A stretch of DNA of 64,000 nt, taken from Candidatus Omnitrophota bacterium (GTDB lineage Bacteria; Omnitrophota; Gorgyraeia; Zapsychrales; JANLHA01). Positions 36,128-52,748 of the stretch are shown piece by piece. Location of the stretch: assembly GCA_020632555.1 (NCBI GenBank), contig JACKFI010000003.1, positions 4,351 to 68,350 on the forward strand. The letters are read 5' to 3'. The number at the start of each line of letters is the position of its first letter. Positions within the stretch are counted from its first letter, which is position 1. The notes under the pieces were generated by a model, which did not search any database, had not been told where the DNA came from, and worked only from the letters and a program-made list of their open reading frames with translations. A program made the translations under genes and the position numbers.

Positions 36128-36228
36128 GATCGGCATCCGGATGGAACATCTCTTTTTTAGAAAAGATTTTTTGATGATAGAAAATATGTTAGAATGTCCT
36201 GTGTTTTTTAGGAAAAGAAAGGAACTCT

Positions 36229-37437
36229 TTGATGCCAACGTTTAAATATGTATCGAAAGACTGGGATTCAAAAAGCGTTGTCGGAAAAATTGTTGCCGAT
36301 GATGAGGGCAAGGTCATTGAGGAATTGCGCAAACGCAATTTGACCATTATTTCGATTGATTTGGTTAAAGAGTCAGCGGCTCGTAAGGCAGCTTTTGGCG
36401 GAGCGAAAGTTAAAGAAGATGATTTGGTTATTTTTAGCCGGCAACTTTCCACTATGATTGATTCTGGAATTCCAATTTTACAGGCTTTGGATGCTTTGCA
36501 AGAACAAATCACGCATCCTGGTTTTAAAGGTGTGGTTGTTGCTGTGCGGGATGATATTCAAATGGGGGGCAGTCTTTCGGCATCCTTTGCCAAGCATCCG
36601 CGCGCTTTTGACACCTTGTTTGTTAACATGGTCAAAGTGGGGGAAACCGGCGGTGTTTTGAGCCAGATTCTGGATCGAATTGCCGGTTATTTGGAAAAAT
36701 CTTTGCGGCTTAAACGTAAAGTTCAGTCAGCGATGATTTATCCGGCCGTTGTTGTGACCATGGCCGCTTTGATTACTATTCTGCTTTTGGTTAAAGTTGT
36801 CCCGACGTTTGCGGGAATTTACACTTCATTTAATAAAGAATTACCGGGTATGACACAAGCTTTGATTAATGTGAGTAATTTGTTGCAGCATAATCTGCTG
36901 GGCTTGATTGCGGGCGTTGTGATTTTTGGGTTTTTGCTGAATCGAGCTTATCGGACAGATATGGGGCGGCTTTATATCGACAGTTTTGTTTTGAAAATGC
37001 CCATTTTTGGCGATATTATCCGCAAAGTTGCTATCGCGCGTTTTAGCCGCACCTTATCGATTCTTTTGCAAACGGGTGTTCCCATTCTTGAATCATTTGA
37101 TATTGTTGGAAAATCCAGCGGGAATCGTGTGATTGAAGGCGTTATTGAAACAGTTAAAGCCAATGTTGCTGAAGGAGAAAGCATTGCCGCTCCGCTGCTT
37201 AAAAGTGGTGTTTTTCCGCCGATGGTCACGCGCATGATTTCTATTGGCGAGAAATCCGGCCAACTTGAAAAAATGCTGACTAAGATTGCTGATTTTTATG
37301 ATGATCAGGTTGATACGGCTGTTAATGGGCTGACCAGCATTATTGAGCCTTTGATTATTGGGGTTTTGGGTATTGTGGTTGGATTCATTGTTATCGCTCT
37401 GTTTATGCCGATTATTAGCATTACGACAATTATTTAA
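36229..37437 (+). CDS. pilC: Type IV pilus platform protein PilC/GspF
   Basis: Two GspF repeats ('FSRQLSTMIDSGIPILQAL', 'FSRTLSILLQTGVPILESF') and 3 TM segments. Confidence 0.9.
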   Translation: MMPTFKYVSKDWDSKSVVGKIVADDEGKVIEELRKRNLTIISIDLVKESAARKAAFGGAKVKEDDLVIFSRQLSTMIDSGIPILQALDALQEQITHPGFKGVVVAVRDDIQMGGSLSASFAKHPRAFDTLFVNMVKVGETGGVLSQILDRIAGYLEKSLRLKRKVQSAMIYPAVVVTMAALITILLLVKVVPTFAGIYTSFNKELPGMTQALINVSNLLQHNLLGLIAGVVIFGFLLNRAYRTDMGRLYIDSFVLKMPIFGDIIRKVAIARFSRTLSILLQTGVPILESFDIVGKSSGNRVIEGVIETVKANVAEGESIAAPLLKSGVFPPMVTRMISIGEKSGQLEKMLTKIADFYDDQVDTAVNGLTSIIEPLIIGVLGIVVGFIVIALFMPIISITTII

Positions 37438-37492: not shown

Positions 37493-39121
37493 ATGGCAAG
37501 GATTATTATGAATCAAAAACGTACGAAAAAAATTTGTTTTTCTTTTTGCTGGGCTGTTGTGTCGATGGGTCTGATTTTGAGTTTGTTCTCTGTTGCGGCT
37601 GCCAGTGAATCACAACAGTCTGTTGATGGTGATGAATTATTGGCAGCATCTTTGAGTGATTTGCGTGCGACAATGGAGAAAGCACGGCAGAGCAATGCTT
37701 CTTATAGTCAGCAAAATCGTTTGTTGCGTCAGCAGATTGATCAAATTCAAGAAGCGATAAATTATTTCGAAACACAAAAAGTTGTTGCTGGGCAAGATGG
37801 TGTTGAAAGTGTTGCTGGCCCTGATCTTGAAGGGGCATTGGCGGATCAGGAGAAAGCGTTGTATGAGGCGCGAGTTGAAAATTTTATGCTCAGACGAGAG
37901 CGTTTTAAAAACGAAGGTTTGCGTTTACAAAAGAAAATTCAATCTTACGATGAAGAGAATCAAATCGCGCAGCAGAATATGGCTCAGTTGGCAAAAGAAA
38001 TTGCCCAAATGGAATCTGGATTAAAAGATCAATCACCGAGCGCAAAGACTCAGGAACAGATTTCGGCTGATGTTTCCGGTGATATTTCTGATTATATAAC
38101 TCGCCGCGGTATTCTTGAGAAAAATCTGGCTTTGCAAAGAGAGATTTTGCAAAATAATGATCAGCAAAAGGCTGTTTTGGAAAAGCAACAAGCTTCACTT
38201 TTGGCAGAAATATCATCAAATCAAGAACAGTTAACTCTTTTGCAGGGAGAGAAAAAGCTGATCATTGGTGAAGTTGAGGCCGCTGGGTCGGATTTGAATC
38301 AGGGGCAGAATAATGACCGCCAAGCTGTTGTGCAGTTGCAGGATTACCGTAATCAATTGAACGCTTCTATAGCAAATTTAAAGAAAACGGCTCGAATGGT
38401 CAGCGAGAAAGATAATAGAAATCTAGAGTACGTTTTAAAAAATCTTAAACAGCAGCAGGTTTTTTTAAAACAAAAGTTGAGCATTTTGGAGAGTCGTGCA
38501 ATTCGGCCGGTTCAATCAGCGAAAGCTGCTAATGCCTTGGTAATCTCACGAAAGCGTTTATTAGAGATTCAAAAAGATTTGCAAACAAAAATTAAACATG
38601 CTCAAAAAGAATATGCCGCAGACAAGCAGTCGATCACTCAAGGCGGGGGTGTGAATGTTGTTGAATTGAATGATAAAATTGACAAAAGTTCCAAGCAGGT
38701 GCGTCATTTGCAACAACAGATTAATGAATTGCAAAGGACACCTTCGGCGGACAGTAAAAGCCAAGAGTTGGCAGCGCAAGTTGAGACTTTAGAAAAGAAT
38801 TTGCAGCTATTGCGTCGGCAGTCTAAAGACATTGCTGCCGCTGATGATGTGGTGACAATAAGCCAAGATGATGGTGCTCTTGAAGAAGAAATCAAGAGTT
38901 TGACTGCTCGACGGGATATTTTGAGCGAGTCGATTAGCGCGATTGATAATAAATATCAGAGGAGCAATCTTTTTCCGAAAGGATTCGGCGCGACAGAAGA
39001 GCAGTTGAAGGAATATCGGTCGACTTTGTCGTCGACTAATGCCGCTTTGCAAGAAAAACTTTTAGTCCTGCAAATGCGGCAAGATAAGCTGGAATCTGCC
39101 GGTGTAACTGGTTTGCAGTAA
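37493..39121 (+). CDS. Exported 542-aa Q/E/K-rich coiled-coil protein embedded in the pilus locus
   Basis: N-terminal signal/anchor KICFSFCWAVVSMGLILSLFSVAAASE. The rest has a heptad-like, low-complexity helical composition. No catalytic motif is present. Confidence 0.55.
   Translation: MARIIMNQKRTKKICFSFCWAVVSMGLILSLFSVAAASESQQSVDGDELLAASLSDLRATMEKARQSNASYSQQNRLLRQQIDQIQEAINYFETQKVVAGQDGVESVAGPDLEGALADQEKALYEARVENFMLRRERFKNEGLRLQKKIQSYDEENQIAQQNMAQLAKEIAQMESGLKDQSPSAKTQEQISADVSGDISDYITRRGILEKNLALQREILQNNDQQKAVLEKQQASLLAEISSNQEQLTLLQGEKKLIIGEVEAAGSDLNQGQNNDRQAVVQLQDYRNQLNASIANLKKTARMVSEKDNRNLEYVLKNLKQQQVFLKQKLSILESRAIRPVQSAKAANALVISRKRLLEIQKDLQTKIKHAQKEYAADKQSITQGGGVNVVELNDKIDKSSKQVRHLQQQINELQRTPSADSKSQELAAQVETLEKNLQLLRRQSKDIAAADDVVTISQDDGALEEEIKSLTARRDILSESISAIDNKYQRSNLFPKGFGATEEQLKEYRSTLSSTNAALQEKLLVLQMRQDKLESAGVTGLQ
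39024..39088. repeat. Direct repeat copy 1 (the 3' end of the coiled-coil gene)
   Basis: ctttgtcgtcgactaatgccgctttgcaagaaaaacttttagtcctgcaaatgcggcaagataag recurs at 40237-40301 with 2 substitutions. Confidence 0.9.
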
Positions 39122-39161
39122 ATTTCTGCAGGTGTCTTTTAGTAGTTAGCAATACGGGAGG

Positions 39162-40193
39162 ATGTTTGCTATGGGTGTGTATCTTAAGAATCTGCATATT
39201 AAAGCTTCTTCAAGCCGGTTGGTTGAAGAAATTCTCCAAGAAAATGTTAAGGACAATTATCGGGTTCTCCCTGCCAAGGGAGGATGGATTACTGTATGTC
39301 TTAACGTAGATAAGGTTGAAGAGAAAGAGTTTGTTGAAATTAACAAGATATTATCGAAAAAACTTGGGGTCGCAATTTGGGGCTTTGATATTTATGACAG
39401 CGATATTTTGGTATTTCATTTATTTGATGGAGGAAATTTAATTGCAAAGTTTAATTCGAATCCTGATTATTTTGGCGTTGCGACTAGAATAAAGCGTAAA
39501 TACTTTTCTTGTAGTGCTGATCAAATAAAAAGATATTGCCAGCGAGGTACTTTAACAAAGCAACTACAAAGAATTCTTAAACAAAAAACTATTCGGGATT
39601 TTGCGGATGAGACTGAAATTGATATTAATAATTATGTTTTTGAAGAACAAAGACTCGAGGAGTTGCTGAGCTTGATTGGGATCGATCGCAAGTGGGCTTA
39701 TACAGATTATAGGGATCGAGATGATAGGAAGAACGCAGAGAATAGTTGTGTCGACATGGATTCTTTTACGGAGCGAGCGAATCAAGAAAATAAAACCGAT
39801 AAGGGTAAATTTGCTTATGCTGTTTCATGGGGTGAAATTACAAAGGTTAAGAAATATCTTTCGCGGGGCTTGAATCCTAATTTTAAGGATATTCTTGGAC
39901 TAACACCGCTGATGATTGCAGCTGAAAATTCTCGAATTGAGACCATGAAAGTTTTGATCGAGAATGGTGCCAATGTTAATACTGTCGATGATAGTGGAAA
40001 TACGGCTTTGCATCTTGCCATTGAATGCGAAGATGAAGATGTTATTAGGTTATTGCTTGAGGTGGGTGCTGATGTTTATAAAAAAAATCGTGCTGGTGCA
40101 ACACCCGACAGTATGATTAGGAGCTCAGAATCTTTGGATGTTTTATTTTCTGATTTATTAAAGAGTTTAAAGAAAAAATCCAGAAAACGTTAG
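39162..40193 (+). CDS. Ankyrin-repeat protein with an uncharacterised N-terminal domain
   Basis: C-terminal ANK units 'GLTPLMIAAENSRIETMKVLIENGANVN', 'SGNTALHLAIECEDEDVIRLLLEVGADV', 'AGATPD'. The N-terminal roughly 220 aa carry no recognised motif and no signal peptide. Confidence 0.8.
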   Translation: MFAMGVYLKNLHIKASSSRLVEEILQENVKDNYRVLPAKGGWITVCLNVDKVEEKEFVEINKILSKKLGVAIWGFDIYDSDILVFHLFDGGNLIAKFNSNPDYFGVATRIKRKYFSCSADQIKRYCQRGTLTKQLQRILKQKTIRDFADETEIDINNYVFEEQRLEELLSLIGIDRKWAYTDYRDRDDRKNAENSCVDMDSFTERANQENKTDKGKFAYAVSWGEITKVKKYLSRGLNPNFKDILGLTPLMIAAENSRIETMKVLIENGANVNTVDDSGNTALHLAIECEDEDVIRLLLEVGADVYKKNRAGATPDSMIRSSESLDVLFSDLLKSLKKKSRKR

Positions 40194-40236
40194 CTATTGA
40201 TAAAAAGGATAGATTCTTATAAATAAATATTTTCTT

Positions 40237-40301
40237 CTTTGTCGTCGGCTAATGCAGCTTTGCAAGAAAAACTTTTAGTCCTGCAAATGCGGCAAGATAA
40301 A
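40237..40301. repeat. Direct repeat copy 2 (non-coding remnant of the coiled-coil gene 3' end)
   Basis: 63 of 65 nt are identical to 39024-39088. It keeps the same reading frame and runs to a TGA that lies inside the TTGACA -35 box at 40328. Confidence 0.9.
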
Positions 40302-40327
40302 GCGCCGGTCACTCAGGCCATGTCCCC

Positions 40328-40356
40328 TTGACATTGTCATAAACAGGTTTTATACT
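40328..40356 (+). promoter_or_regulatory. Sigma70-type promoter driving the riboswitch-pilA leader
   Basis: TTGACA (40328-40333), 17-nt spacer, TATACT (40351-40356). Confidence 0.65.
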
Positions 40357-40382
40357 TTCAGTGCAGCAAAGTTAAAAGATGA

Positions 40383-40470
40383 AAAAGGCAAACCACTCGC
40401 AAGGGTGGGACGCAAAGCTAAAGGGTCCCGTCGCCGGAAGGTGAAGTTTGAGGGACAGCCAGTTACCATC
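40383..40470 (+). promoter_or_regulatory. c-di-GMP-I (GEMM-I) riboswitch aptamer
   Basis: 'GGCAAACCACUCGCAAGGGUGGGACGCAAAGCU' aligns almost base for base with the V. cholerae Vc2 aptamer segment 'GGCAAACCAUUCGAAAGAGUGGGACGCAAAGCC' (recalled from the literature). The first hairpin has a GNRA (GCAA) tetraloop. A second hairpin GUCCC...GGGAC carries an internal GGAA loop, and the 3' 'AGUUACC' matches Vc2 'GGUUACC'. Confidence 0.8.
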
Positions 40471-40490
40471 AAAAGGTCAAAAGCTTATGT

Positions 40491-40525
40491 ATCCCATTCT
40501 TGGTTGGTCAGGAATGGGATTTTTT
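40491..40525 (+). terminator. Intrinsic terminator (riboswitch expression platform)
   Basis: atcccattc (40491-40499) pairs with gaatgggat (40512-40520), followed by TTTTT at 40521-40525. Confidence 0.75.
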
Positions 40526-40776
40526 ATTGAGATATATAAAGACAAATAATCGCAAGAATGGCGAATAAAAAAATTGCAAGTAAGATTGACAGCGAAAGGA
40601 GGTATGTTACGATTAGTACCATAAGTTAACTTAACGATAAAGGAACATCGAACAAGCGCTCTGCACGGGAAATAAATTTTGTAAACCGTTATCATTCATT
40701 ATCTTCTACGGTTTATTTTCTGGGTAAAGGGCTTGAAAAAGACGGTGCCGACCTTTATCCAGAAAGGAGGAAGAAA

Positions 40777-41175
40777 ATGAAAATGAAATTAAATCGCAAG
40801 GGGTTCACACTCGTTGAAATTATGATCGTTGTCGCGATCATTGCCCTCTTAGCAGCCATCGCAATTCCGAACTTGTTAAAAGCCAAGATTTCAGCGAACG
40901 ATGCCTTAGCAAAAAGCACGTTGCGTTCGCTCTCAACAGCTTCTGAGACGTTTGCAACGGCTAACACCGGTAACTATCCGACTGATATTACGTCGTTGAC
41001 AGGAGCCACCCCGCCGTACATTCAGGTGCCATATTGTGATCAACAAAACTCTGGTTTCAGCTTTACCTGTACCATGGGAACAGGGTCTTACACGTATGTG
41101 GCCACGCCTGTAACGGTTGGGACTTCAGGGACAACGACATGGACGATTGCTACGGGTGGTGTTTTAACTCCGTAA
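40777..41175 (+). CDS. pilA: Major type IV pilin
   Basis: AGGAGG RBS. Class III signal 'MKMKLNRKG/FTLVEIMIVVAIIALLAAIAIPN' (prepilin cleavage/methylation motif). Small T/G-rich C-terminal domain with one Cys pair. Confidence 0.9.
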   Translation: MKMKLNRKGFTLVEIMIVVAIIALLAAIAIPNLLKAKISANDALAKSTLRSLSTASETFATANTGNYPTDITSLTGATPPYIQVPYCDQQNSGFSFTCTMGTGSYTYVATPVTVGTSGTTTWTIATGGVLTP

Positions 41176-50265: not shown

Positions 50266-50268
50266 CCG

Positions 50269-50601
50269 AGCCTGCCGACTTTGCGTGAGCAAACAAGCAG
50301 GCGAGCGACTGAACGTAGTGAAGGAGTCCCGCTTTCCCGAAGGGTAGATGCGGGAGGAATACTGCGAACTCGAGTGAAGCAGTATGATCGAATTAATAAA
50401 TATATATAAGCCTGCTGACTTTGCGTAAGCAAACAAGCAGGCGAGCGACTGAACGTAGTGAAGGAGTCCCGCTTTCCCGAAGGGTAGATGCGGGAGGAAT
50501 ACTGTGAGCGACTGAGGACGTAATGTCCGAAAGAGTGTCGTGGCCATCTGGCCAAGACCTAGAGCGAAGCAGTATGGTCGAATTAATAAATATATATAAG
50601 C
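50269..50601. repeat. GC-rich tandem repeat: a 96-nt core present twice (50269-50364 and 50409-50504) plus a shared 38-nt AT-rich tail present twice (50374-50411 and 50564-50601)
   Basis: The cores differ at 2 positions (period 140 bp). The tails read gag[t/c]gaagcagtatg[a/g]tcgaattaataaatatatataagc. Unit 2 carries an extra roughly 52-nt GC-rich insert. Confidence 0.9.
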
Positions 50602-50773
50602 TTGCGCCGTCGGCCGAGCTACGGAGAGCTCGGCGCTCCTTCGGACGTTGCGTCCTCAGTCGCGGGAGCTCCGGCATTCAACGCGTTGCAGCCATCTGGC
50701 TGCCGTGTTGATATTGGAGCATCAGCGACAATACAAGCGAAAATCAACAGTGGCTTGGTCATTGTCAAGAGGC

Positions 50774-50802
50774 TTGACAATTCTTAATATTCTGTTTAAA
50801 TA
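50774..50802 (+). promoter_or_regulatory. Sigma70-type promoter for rplU, with the -35 box inside a 9-3-9 palindrome
   Basis: TTGACA (50774-50779), 17-nt spacer, TAAATA (50797-50802). The palindrome attgtcaag-agg-cttgacaat spans 50761-50781. Confidence 0.6.
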
Positions 50803-51202: not shown

Positions 51203-52174
51203 ATGGCGTTTGTTGATGAGGTCAGGATTTTTGTTAAGGCTGGTAACGGCGGGAAAGGCTGCGAAAGTTTTTATCAAGACAAACTCAATCGATATCCTCG
51301 GCCTGACGGCGGCGACGGCGGCAAGGGCGGGGATATTACTTTTGTTGCTGACAAATCGGTGCATACATTGTTGGATTATCGTTTTAAGCAGCATTACCAA
51401 GCCGGGCGGGGCGGGCACGGCAGCAGCAAGAATTTTAAAGGCAAAAGCGGTAAGGATATTTTTTTGCGGGTCCCGATCGGGACGATCATCCGCGATTTTG
51501 ATACCAAACTTTTGATTCGTGATCTTGTTGAAGACGGCCAGTCGATTCTGGTGGCCAAAGGCGGCATCCAAGGTCGCGGGAATCACGACGGCCGACGTTC
51601 TTTGCCTCCCGGCGAGGGCGAAGCCAAAACCATTCATCTTGAGTTAAAAGTCATTGCAGATGTTGGGATTGTGGGTTTTCCCAATGCGGGCAAGTCGACG
51701 TTGATTTCTAATATTTCTAAAGTTCGTTCCAAAATTGCCAATTATCCTTTTACTACGCGCCAGCCGATTTTGGGTGTGGTGATTGGTGATGATAATTCAC
51801 ATTTTACGGTTGCGGATTTGCCCGGCTTGATTGAAGGGGCGCATTTGGGCAAAGGTTTGGGCGACCGATTTTTAAAACATGCGGAACGCACAAAGATTTT
51901 AATTCATTTATTGGATATGGCCGGCAGTGAGTGTCGGGATCCTTTGGACGATTATGACAAGATTAAGAATGAATTAGAGCTTTATAGTGATAAGTTGGCT
52001 TTAAAGATTCGTTTGGTGGTGGCCAATAAAATGGACCTGCCTGAGGCGGCCGCGAATTTGAAACGTTTTAAACGAAAATACAAAAAAGAAGAAATTCTCA
52101 GCATTTCAGCTTTAGAGGGTAAAGGTTTAGACAAGCTGGTTGCGCGCCTGCGGGAGTTATTGGATAAAAAGTAG
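51203..52174 (+). CDS. obg: GTPase Obg/CgtA
   Basis: Obg fold 'FVDEVRIFVKAGNGGKG...GGDGGKGGD'. G1 'GFPNAGKST', G3 'DLPGLIEGA', G4 'NKMD'. Confidence 0.95.
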   Translation: MAFVDEVRIFVKAGNGGKGCESFYQDKLNRYPRPDGGDGGKGGDITFVADKSVHTLLDYRFKQHYQAGRGGHGSSKNFKGKSGKDIFLRVPIGTIIRDFDTKLLIRDLVEDGQSILVAKGGIQGRGNHDGRRSLPPGEGEAKTIHLELKVIADVGIVGFPNAGKSTLISNISKVRSKIANYPFTTRQPILGVVIGDDNSHFTVADLPGLIEGAHLGKGLGDRFLKHAERTKILIHLLDMAGSECRDPLDDYDKIKNELELYSDKLALKIRLVVANKMDLPEAAANLKRFKRKYKKEEILSISALEGKGLDKLVARLRELLDKK

Positions 52175-52211
52175 CAGCTGTCCCCTTTTTTTAAGGGAAA
52201 CCCCTCGGTGC

Positions 52212-52291
52212 TTGATAAATAATTTTTGTAGGGAACGGTCGCGACCGTTCCTTGTCCGTTGCGAATTTGGGCAACGCTGCCAGAATTGGGA
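52212..52291. repeat. 80-bp direct repeat copy 1 (contains the 20-bp perfect palindrome 52232-52251)
   Basis: ttgataaataatttttgtagggaacggtcgcgaccgttccttgtccgttgcgaatttgggcaacgctgccagaattggga recurs at 52669-52748 with 78 of 80 nt identical. Confidence 0.9.
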
Positions 52292-52316: not shown

Positions 52317-52631
52317 ATGAAAGAGAATTCTAGAGATTTTTTGTATGGTTTTGTTATTGTTATTGTCGCGATAGCTATTGAGTTGGGTACTTTGAAACCC
52401 GTTGCAATGAACTTGGGTGATCATGGAAATATTCTGGCAGGGGTATGTTTAAGCCTTACGCCGTTGATATTGTTGGCTTTGTGTGTATTTTTTATTATTA
52501 AAAAAAGAGCGTCAATTAGTATTGGCATTATCCTTGGGATTTTGGCTATTATTGGTGTAATTGCTTTAAACTCATGGGAGCGAACGCCATTATCATCTTG
52601 GGAGAGATCGGCAATTGAAAGTAACCATTAA
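52317..52631 (+). CDS. Small (104-aa) 3-TM membrane protein, hypothetical
   Basis: The ATG at 52317 comes 5 nt after GAGGAG. Three hydrophobic helices. The upstream part of the track ORF (52140-52316) lies in the repeat and the obg 3' region. Confidence 0.55.
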   Translation: MKENSRDFLYGFVIVIVAIAIELGTLKPVAMNLGDHGNILAGVCLSLTPLILLALCVFFIIKKRASISIGIILGILAIIGVIALNSWERTPLSSWERSAIESNH

Positions 52632-52668
52632 TCTCAAAGATAAAATTTAGGAGCTGTCCCAACAATTG

Positions 52669-52748
52669 TTGATAAATAATTTTTGTAGGGAACGGTCGCG
52701 ACCGTTTCTTGTCCGTTGTGAATTTGGGCAACGCTGCCAGAATTGGGA
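52669..52748. repeat. 80-bp direct repeat copy 2
   Basis: See copy 1. The two substitutions are C to T: one breaks the palindrome and the other keeps the second hairpin paired as G.U. Confidence 0.9.

Follow-up and report, generated by a model that had tools for sequence, protein, structure and literature searches.

The DNA analysed here is a 64,000-nucleotide stretch from a metagenome-assembled genome (MAG) of Candidatus Omnitrophota, called the window below. Within a type IV pilus operon, it carries a 1148-nt insert at the 3' end of a gene for a coiled-coil protein. The insert brings one complete gene, for an ankyrin-repeat protein, and is bracketed by two direct copies of the last part of the coiled-coil gene. 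The insertion is real and derived, and it is found in at least three sequence variants. To judge from sequence divergence, the cassette was exchanged horizontally after it had formed, long after the lineages that carry it had split.

Among the mechanisms compared, the one that ranks highest is insertion-duplication followed by recombinational spread. Its probability is put at around 45%, so somewhat below even.

A gene between two copies of a gene end

The operon reads pilB, pilB, pilC, the coiled-coil gene, the ankyrin gene, pilin, minor pilins and pilMNO. In all relatives the coiled-coil gene sits between pilC and the pilin gene. Its product, P0001 (MCB9757177.1, H6753_01980), has no Pfam domain above threshold. 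Related loci and proteins are referred to by L and P numbers; the locus most used for comparison is L004, from assembly GCA_020049755.1. The parts of the insertion are as follows.

37508..39121, + strand: gene for the coiled-coil protein, within the type IV pilus operon, 537 aa, with an N-terminal hydrophobic anchor
39024..39088, + strand: repeat copy 1 (the 'type A' patch), encoding ...TLSSTNAALQEKLLVLQMRQDK, the best-conserved part of the protein
39089..39121, + strand: replacement tail carried by the cassette, LESAGVTGLQ and a stop, from translation; identical in L004
39122..39170, + strand: spacer of 49 nt, with a weak terminator-like hairpin at 39111-39133 and a GGGAGG Shine-Dalgarno sequence at 39156-39161
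39171..40193, + strand: ankyrin cargo gene, 340 aa, MCB9757178.1, Pfam Ank_2 at E=2e-19
40194..40236, + strand: 3' non-coding trailer of 43 nt, which ends ...ATATTTTCTT at the junction with copy 2
40237..40301, + strand: repeat copy 2, with which the displaced original gene end begins, from the repeat finder
40239..40331, + strand: displaced native 3' end of the coiled-coil gene, which reads LSSANAALQEKLLVLQMRQDKAPVTQAMSP and a stop

The repeat finder reports 39024-39087 and 40237-40300 as direct repeats of 64 nt with 62 identical positions and a start-to-start spacing of 1213. Position 65 is a G at 39088 and an A at 40301, and the two can be matched only with a 1-nt gap. The first-pass annotation, made from the sequence alone, had counted 63 identities in 65; the repeat itself stands, but that count was slightly off. 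In a 64-kb sequence of the same composition, the chance expectation for such a pair is 4e-25, and the whole window has only eight repeat families of at least 35 nt. The repeat consists of the coiled-coil gene's own 3' coding sequence.

Both edges of the repeat are sharp. When the flanks of the two copies are aligned and compared to shuffles, the 60 nt on the 3' side give p=0.34 and the 60 nt on the 5' side p=0.25. The idea that the cassette holds a longer, diverged orthologous gene end was dropped, as the DNA beyond the copies aligns no better than shuffled sequence.

The interval 39089-40236 had been said to hold exactly one gene. It does hold a single full open reading frame (ORF), the ankyrin one, and in addition it supplies the tail of the coiled-coil gene, 10 codons and a stop. 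This means that the last 32 codons of the coiled-coil gene now come from copy 1 and the cassette. The native and replacement tails have no significant similarity, though at the protein level LESAGVTGLQ and APVTQAMSP do look alike (AGVTG / APVTQ).

Copy 2 stays in frame through to ...QDKAPVTQAMSP and a stop, so that it ends on the native tail APVTQAMSP. The stop codon, TGA at 40329-40331, falls within TTGACA (40328-40333), which is the -35 box of the riboswitch promoter. Translation and the promoter match thereby agree with what had been read from the sequence before. There is no usable start codon in the displaced end, and an in-frame TAA lies 13 nt upstream. On this sequence evidence the displaced end is an untranslated pseudogene fragment. 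The riboswitch promoter and the pilin genes were left intact by the insertion.

The insert was earlier called AT-rich by eye, and it is. Its GC content is 0.360 against a window mean of 0.425, and no other 1148-nt segment goes lower (0.2 percentile). The GC content at third codon positions (GC3) of the ankyrin gene, at 0.302, is the lowest among 52 ORFs (mean 0.416, standard deviation 0.049). Synonymous codon choice in the ankyrin gene is ordinary. A composition that deviates this moderately would fit a donor that is not very distant.

To place the insertion, relatives of the coiled-coil protein were sought among 5.8 billion proteins, which gave only four clusters. P0003 and its cluster members P0276 and P0277 (76% identical) end ...QDKAQITQVMSP. 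In this sister lineage, represented by L001-L003 (Logan) and L012-L013 (JGI, the Joint Genome Institute; one of these is the 632-kb contig Ga0558116_00052), the site is empty and the patch is present as a single copy. The coiled-coil gene there leads directly into the riboswitch promoter and then the pilin gene. In sequence, the order of the empty allele is ...GGTCGA, patch, AGCGCCGG....

The outgroup L006 (P0004, 38% identical) is also empty, and its gene ends QDKNPR and a stop, 47 nt ahead of the promoter. Because both the sister lineage and the outgroup have the uninterrupted arrangement, the insertion is the derived state. The first-pass annotation had taken the ankyrin gene for an insert, and copy 2 for the ancestral gene end that once abutted the promoter. 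The empty sites of the relatives bear out the first, and show exactly that gene end.

The occupied site is found in L004 (P0002, 79% identical), where the protein ends ...QDKLESAGVTGLQ and both junctions are the same as in the window. For example, the insert passes into copy 2 as TTTTTTT/CTTTGT in both. The Logan unitig L011 carries the cassette and is identical to the window, whose strain it represents, and the unitig L005 has a third variant at 97.9% identity. Logan unitigs (k=31) do not reach across the 65-nt patch, and L005 and L011 indeed break inside the repeats, as is expected for k=31 graphs.

Other searches for alleles returned little. A scan of JGI metagenomes with the N-terminal domain of the cargo protein gave no matches, the 20-mer CTGCAAATGCGGCAAGATAA had only chance matches in JGI and GTDB (L007-L009), and exact look-ups of the pilin (with two start sites) and of the small membrane ORF gave no matches.

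An artefact of assembly, either a duplication or a collapse within the MAG, had been raised as something that could undo the finding. Short repeats can mislead assemblers, and it is at the repeat that the Logan unitigs break. Against this, L004, which was assembled independently, has the same structure, and its two copies differ from each other at 8 positions. The structure also occurs in Logan unitigs from other runs (L005, L011), and three SRA runs yielded it. Both junctions lie in unique sequence, and the flanking ORFs are intact. The probability of an artefact is therefore next to negligible.

Divergence, patch alleles and possible mechanisms

The window and L004 differ far more around the cassette than in it. 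Upstream, identity is 90.8% in pilB, 90.3% in pilC and 82.4% over most of the coiled-coil gene. The insert is 98.2% identical (21 differences in 1148 nt), after which identity falls to 87.7% in copy 2 and 89.5% downstream. The non-coding part 39089-39170 has 0 mismatches. The same pattern is seen in synonymous divergence (dS), which is 0.54 for pilB, 0.53 for pilC and 0.51 for the coiled-coil gene, and 0.034 for the ankyrin gene. The three cassette variants differ mutually by about 2%.

A change-point fit with two rates places the maximum-likelihood tract of low divergence at 39043-40233, with a log-likelihood gain of 86. The support intervals of its ends, 38987-39075 and 40184-40242, take in the point at which copy 1 starts and that at which the insert ends. 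As far as this fit can place it, the tract is copy 1 plus the insert.

Measured in synonymous divergence, the cassette is some 15 times younger than the sequence around it, a contrast that points to horizontal spread and that the first-pass annotation had not foreseen. Given that the contrast is in synonymous sites, constraint on the protein cannot explain the low divergence. In addition, L004 is closer to the empty L001 than to the window in both the coiled-coil gene and pilB. A young cassette, in flanks that are nearer to an empty relative, means that the cassette moved between lineages after these had diverged.

It could also be that the insertion is old, was inherited vertically and was lost again in the L001 lineage, with constraint or a chimeric assembly behind the low divergence. 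A deletion between 65-bp direct repeats would recreate exactly the empty site, and the L004 metagenome contig may be chimeric. Yet the outgroup L006 is empty too, and the proximity of L004 to the empty L001 requires an extra loss. Selection on the protein leaves the 15-fold lower synonymous divergence unexplained, and neither the invariant non-coding stretch nor the small differences among variants are what an old insertion would give. We consider vertical inheritance highly unlikely.

Exchange among these lineages is not limited to the cassette. The window is identical to L001 at 100% over 36198-36347 and 38930-39020, amid 10-20% divergence. Such mosaic identity among three lineages indicates either frequent homologous exchange or, possibly, strain-chimeric assembly. 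Patchy donor tracts are known from transformation (PMC13344027).

The patch itself comes in two types. Type A (GTCGTCGRCTAATGYMGCTTTGCAAG) is found in copies 1 and 2 of the window, copy 1 of L004 and copy 2 of L005. Type B (GTYGTTGGCCAAYGCGGCTCTTCAAG) is the single copy of L001 and L012, and also copy 2 of L004. The latter has 4 mismatches to the single copy of L001 and 8 to copy 1 of its own locus. Copy 1 of the window has 3 mismatches to copy 1 of L004, and 7 to the single copy of L001. The outgroup L006 has GCTTTGCAAG, as in type A, which makes it plausible that type A is the native state in the window lineage. Type B would then plausibly be a derived state of the clade of L001 and L004.

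Type A can also fold. Positions 39040-39080 (5244-5284 in L004) form a 12-bp hairpin as a single strand, with a free energy of -12.3 kcal/mol and a z-score of -3.3. There is no such hairpin in type B (z from about 0 to +0.9). Where the two types differ in the hairpin arm (GCC GCT TTG in A, GCG GCT CTT in B), the changes are synonymous. As a functional feature the hairpin was set aside: the outgroup sequence does not conserve it, and it is probably fortuitous.

In the highest-ranked mechanism, insertion-duplication, the primary event would have taken place in a window-like lineage in which the type A patch was already native. The donor would be some 1.2 kb of non-replicating DNA in which a 65-bp patch lay beside the ankyrin gene, probably a circularised fragment taken up from a relative. 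A single Campbell-type crossover with the resident patch would duplicate that patch and heal the target gene in one step. The circle, or a tandem junction, would read ...ATATTTTCTT, patch, GCTGGAATCTG....

The occupied allele would later have entered the L004 lineage by homologous recombination via the flanks. In that transfer only the 1,213 bp of copy 1 and cassette, which form the heterologous loop, would stay donor-type, and the paired flanks, copy 2 included, would stay or be repaired to recipient type. Going by the alleles, the most economical history would be a duplication in a type-A lineage, with copy 1 and cassette later placed in the L004 lineage upstream of its native type-B patch.

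The sharp repeat ends are as expected if the repeat is the homology patch. The first-pass annotation had reported no integrase or IS (insertion sequence) here, and this holds over a larger area, since the Pfam list for L001 has none over some 10 kb to each side of the syntenic locus. A second gene in the window that is bracketed by repeats suggests that the process may recur. For the primary event, the Campbell-type model is a good and plausible one, and template switching would give the same picture.

Campbell-type integration had been proposed from the outset, on the strength of the repeats of resident sequence. These repeats, their sharp ends and the empty sites agree with it. The hybrid repeats that it predicts do not appear in L004, however. 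If the crossover fell in the conserved right part of the patch, copy 1 should be native and copy 2 the one that travelled. L004 has the opposite: the left 27 nt of its copy 1 are type A, and those of its copy 2 are type B, which here differs from the single copy of L001 at 3 positions. The copies in the window differ at 2 positions only, and are uninformative on this point. The reversed pattern contradicts a Campbell-type crossover for the transfer into L004, and insertion-duplication therefore needs a separate secondary route, a double crossover in which the loop is retained.

Other points also count against insertion-duplication. With 65 bp, the patch offers RecA little homology. The donor-type tract coincides at either end with an edge of the cassette, for which a site-specific mechanism is the simpler explanation. 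Neither a circle nor a donor genome nor an empty type-A site turned up, and the scans of JGI and GTDB were uninformative. Furthermore, L004 is a metagenome contig, and strain chimerism at the 38-nt conserved core of the patch could inflate the contrast in divergence. The junction between insert and copy 2 in L004 shares only 6 nt with the alternative path, and so exists in real DNA.

For the transfer into L004, two options remain on the sequence. Either the exchange point would lie within the first 6 nt of the patch, which is a site-specific reading, or the transfer would be homologous with the unpaired loop kept donor-type.

The site-specific reading can be extended to the whole history. In that case an element of the e14/icd type, or one like a cis-mobilizable element (CIME), has lost its own recombinase, or never had one, and is mobilised in trans. 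The 1,213-bp unit would circularise, and a recombinase encoded elsewhere would insert it at a short core (roughly CTTTGT) at the left edge of the patch, with CTTTGTCGTCG as candidate core or junction. The element would bring a substitute gene end, so that the target gene survives. The junctions share C(T/G)TTGT, as read from the only two occupied alleles with flanks.

The anatomy is that of e14, where the functional icd reaches into the element and the 3' pseudogene icdC lies at the far end (PMC13626634). That attL and attR (the attachment sites) are kept after the recombination genes are lost is part of the CIME concept (PMC5704250). In L004, copy 1 is wholly cassette type and copy 2 wholly native, which puts the exchange within the first 6 nt of the patch, and the donor-type tract is copy 1 plus insert. 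In L010, a distance of 1.5 kb separates the closest cargo homologue, P0125, from a tyrosine integrase and an HTH_17 gene.

Other points count against it. Neither the cassette nor the roughly 10 kb around the syntenic locus encodes a recombinase, inverted core-binding sites are not evident, and no larger parent element is known at the site. Phage and plasmid collections have no match for the cargo domain. The number of informative junction pairs is two, and the near-identical copies of the window fit a plain duplication equally well. A site-specific origin seems unlikely.

A third mechanism is a one-off illegitimate event, by template switching or mediated by microhomology, with later spread by homologous recombination. 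The nascent strand would have switched out of the coiled-coil gene once past ...GATAA, used 1,148 nt of foreign DNA as template, and returned at CTT, 65 nt upstream, so that the patch was copied a second time. Such an event also accounts for sharp repeat ends, it requires no mobility genes, and homologous exchange among the lineages is evident. There are 2-3 nt of possible microhomology (AGC/GC at 39088, CTT at 40234-40239), but these are too short for significance. A second repeat-bracketed gene 12 kb away is left unexplained unless such events are common, and the precise tract ends in L004 are as hard to explain as under insertion-duplication. On balance a one-off event of this kind seems as unlikely as a site-specific origin.

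A bolder variant would have the 1,213-bp unit be a discrete, non-autonomous and 'self-healing' cassette. It would move between Omnitrophota lineages to a fixed point in the coiled-coil gene, driven by a recombinase elsewhere or by a transformation-linked pathway, and a gene between obg and proB would be another product of the same mechanism. This is speculative, and quite unlikely to be true as a whole.

Cargo protein, pilin control and other repeats

Three parts make up the cargo protein: an N-terminal domain that spans residues 1 to about 180, then a disordered linker, and at about 215-310 three ankyrin repeats. Pfam Ank_2 matches residues 219-309 at 2.1e-19, with 70.3 bits against a cut-off of 27.3. 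By inspection there is no signal peptide. The first-pass annotation associated bacterial ankyrin proteins with interaction with other cells, which for this one would be a conjecture. Matches in PADLOC and PHROGs cover the ankyrin part only and were discarded as a clue to function.

The N-terminal domain matches no Pfam or NCBIfam family. A search among 1.8 billion representatives found 300 relatives at E<=1e-3, again with no Pfam domain in them, and every one that is named is a 'hypothetical protein'. The domain is nearly always N-terminal and mostly stands ahead of ankyrin repeats. In the window it is encoded by 39171-39716 (residues 1-182), and the family consensus starts MGxFxxNxHVR, with M1, G2, N7, W39, S62, G88, S96, P98 and Y100 as invariant residues.

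AlphaFold2 gives a predicted local distance difference test (pLDDT) score of 85.8 for the full protein and 92.9 for the domain, which has a beta-alpha-beta core followed by helices. The cargo protein has no fold match in the PDB at E<=1e-3, and no sequence match to solved structures. On these results, the domain looks like an undescribed family that is usually fused to ankyrin repeats.

At 90% identity, the cargo cluster has only three members: the window, L004 and L005. The next relative is P0125, 43% identical in the N-terminal domain and also with ankyrin repeats. Within 3022-6939 of contig L010 (GCA_020049755.1), its gene is preceded by genes for an HTH_17 excisionase-like protein, a tyrosine integrase and an AAA_14/DUF4143 ATPase. 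Judged by gene content, these surroundings look like an integrative-element context, but the integrase there sits at a site unrelated to that of the cassette. No direct repeats that would mark an element were found around P0125 in L010.

The ankyrin genes of the window and L004 have 18 differences, of which 11 are non-synonymous. All 11 are in the N-terminal domain, where dN/dS (non-synonymous over synonymous divergence) is 0.45. The ankyrin part has 1 synonymous change and 0 non-synonymous ones. Constraint on the N-terminal domain appears relaxed, or the domain may be diversifying.

Within the insert, no promoter match was found 5' of the ankyrin gene. The gene is therefore probably co-transcribed with the pilB, pilC and coiled-coil genes. 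Downstream of the insertion lies the control region of the pilin gene.

40328..40356, + strand: sigma-70-like promoter of the riboswitch leader, TTGACA, 17-nt spacer, TATACT (11/12 match)
40378..40471, + strand: c-di-GMP-I-GGC riboswitch aptamer (RF03167), 61.2 bits against a gathering threshold of 59, full model 1-80
40491..40520, + strand: intrinsic terminator of the riboswitch, following the aptamer
40777..41175, + strand: major pilin gene (N_methyl motif), with a second promoter upstream at 40586-40613

The riboswitch promoter is conserved in L001-L004. The leader of about 165 nt after the second promoter is nearly invariant in the window, L004 and L001-L003. The stretch 40328-40776 holds two stacked control units ahead of a single pilin gene.

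The other gene bracketed by repeats is a 104-aa ORF with three hydrophobic segments, at 52317-52631 between obg and proB. Its GC content is 0.36. The flanking repeats are at 52163-52291 and 52639-52748, with an 80-nt core that is 98% identical. The second copy retains a remnant of the last codons and the stop of obg (51203-52174). For this locus, the only relatives found are contigs below 2 kb (L014, L015) that do not span the spacer.

Repeats, tandem or dispersed, are also found in the spacer between RNase E/G and rplU (50266-50790). There is a 99-nt pair at 50269-50367 and 50409-50507 (97%), and a 50-nt pair at 50366-50415 and 50556-50605. These spacer repeats have internal hairpins. A 59-nt piece, 50675-50733 on the minus strand, matches 4493-4551 of L010 at 91.5%, beside the integrase gene. 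The spacer contains no tRNA, and even at E<=1 nothing in Rfam matches it.

Meaning and comparison with known systems

The insertion is a clean natural case, from an uncultivated phylum, of the gain of a single gene that repairs its own target. Occupied, empty and outgroup alleles are all available, and the 15-fold contrast in age marks a gene that travels between lineages about 10% diverged. This makes it a concrete locus for gauging recombination and transformation in Omnitrophota populations from metagenomic reads.

The insertion also places an ankyrin protein with an uncharacterised N-terminal domain under the control of a type IV pilus operon, beside a cyclic di-GMP riboswitch. If a recombinase acting in trans does move the cassette, the latter would count as an integrative element of unusually small size; if not, it is an ordinary but instructive product of recombination. 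If the 104-aa ORF is also a derived insertion, repeat-bracketed insertion of single genes would be a recurrent form of gene gain in this genome.

Some known kinds of element do not apply. An integron gene cassette was rejected, as neither strand of the 65-nt repeat has GTTRRRY and there is no integrase nearby. So was an IS or transposon: there is no transposase, the insert ends have no inverted repeats, and the duplication is 64-65 bp. An attachment site in a tRNA gene does not fit either, with no tRNA in the window, L001, L004 or L010, and no Rfam match besides the riboswitch.

Insertion-duplication is the single crossover of a non-replicating circle that carries a chromosomal fragment, and it is used as a mutagenesis tool in naturally transformable bacteria. 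The likeness lies in direct repeats that match the extent of the homology patch, in their sharp ends, in mobility genes not being needed and in reversibility between the repeats. The differences are that a natural patch of 65 bp is very short, that no circular donor has been seen, and that the L004 alleles misfit a crossover in the patch.

CIMEs are decayed remnants of integrative and conjugative or integrative and mobilizable elements (ICEs and IMEs), in which attL and attR are kept and the integration genes are gone (PMC5704250). Like them, the insert has no recombination genes and bears evidence of horizontal movement. Unlike them, it has no known parent ICE or IME or cognate integrase at the site, it is far smaller, and its repeats are only candidate att sites.

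Homology-facilitated illegitimate recombination similarly puts foreign DNA beside a homologous anchor, without mobility genes (PMC3240628). It makes a new illegitimate joint in each event, however, whereas the window and L004 share the right junction. Nor does it predict a donor tract that starts where the duplicated segment starts.

The closest parallel in anatomy is e14 (and phage 21) in icd of E. coli, also an insert in the 3' end of a protein-coding gene. There too the element supplies a substitute gene end, with partly synonymous differences from the native one, and the target gene is intact (PMC13626634). The displaced native 3' fragment is kept as a pseudogene (icdC) at the far end, and loss of the element would rejoin the gene (PMC13626634). 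The two differ in that e14 is about 15 kb with its own integrase and excisionase, against 1.15 kb, one cargo gene and no recombinase here, and in that the last 10 codons are here replaced by unrelated sequence.

What adds interest to the Omnitrophota case is its small size, the absence of mobility genes and a horizontal spread that can be demonstrated. With its duplicated target end, and a gene end replaced as e14 does in icd, the insertion is of a known kind and not a new system.

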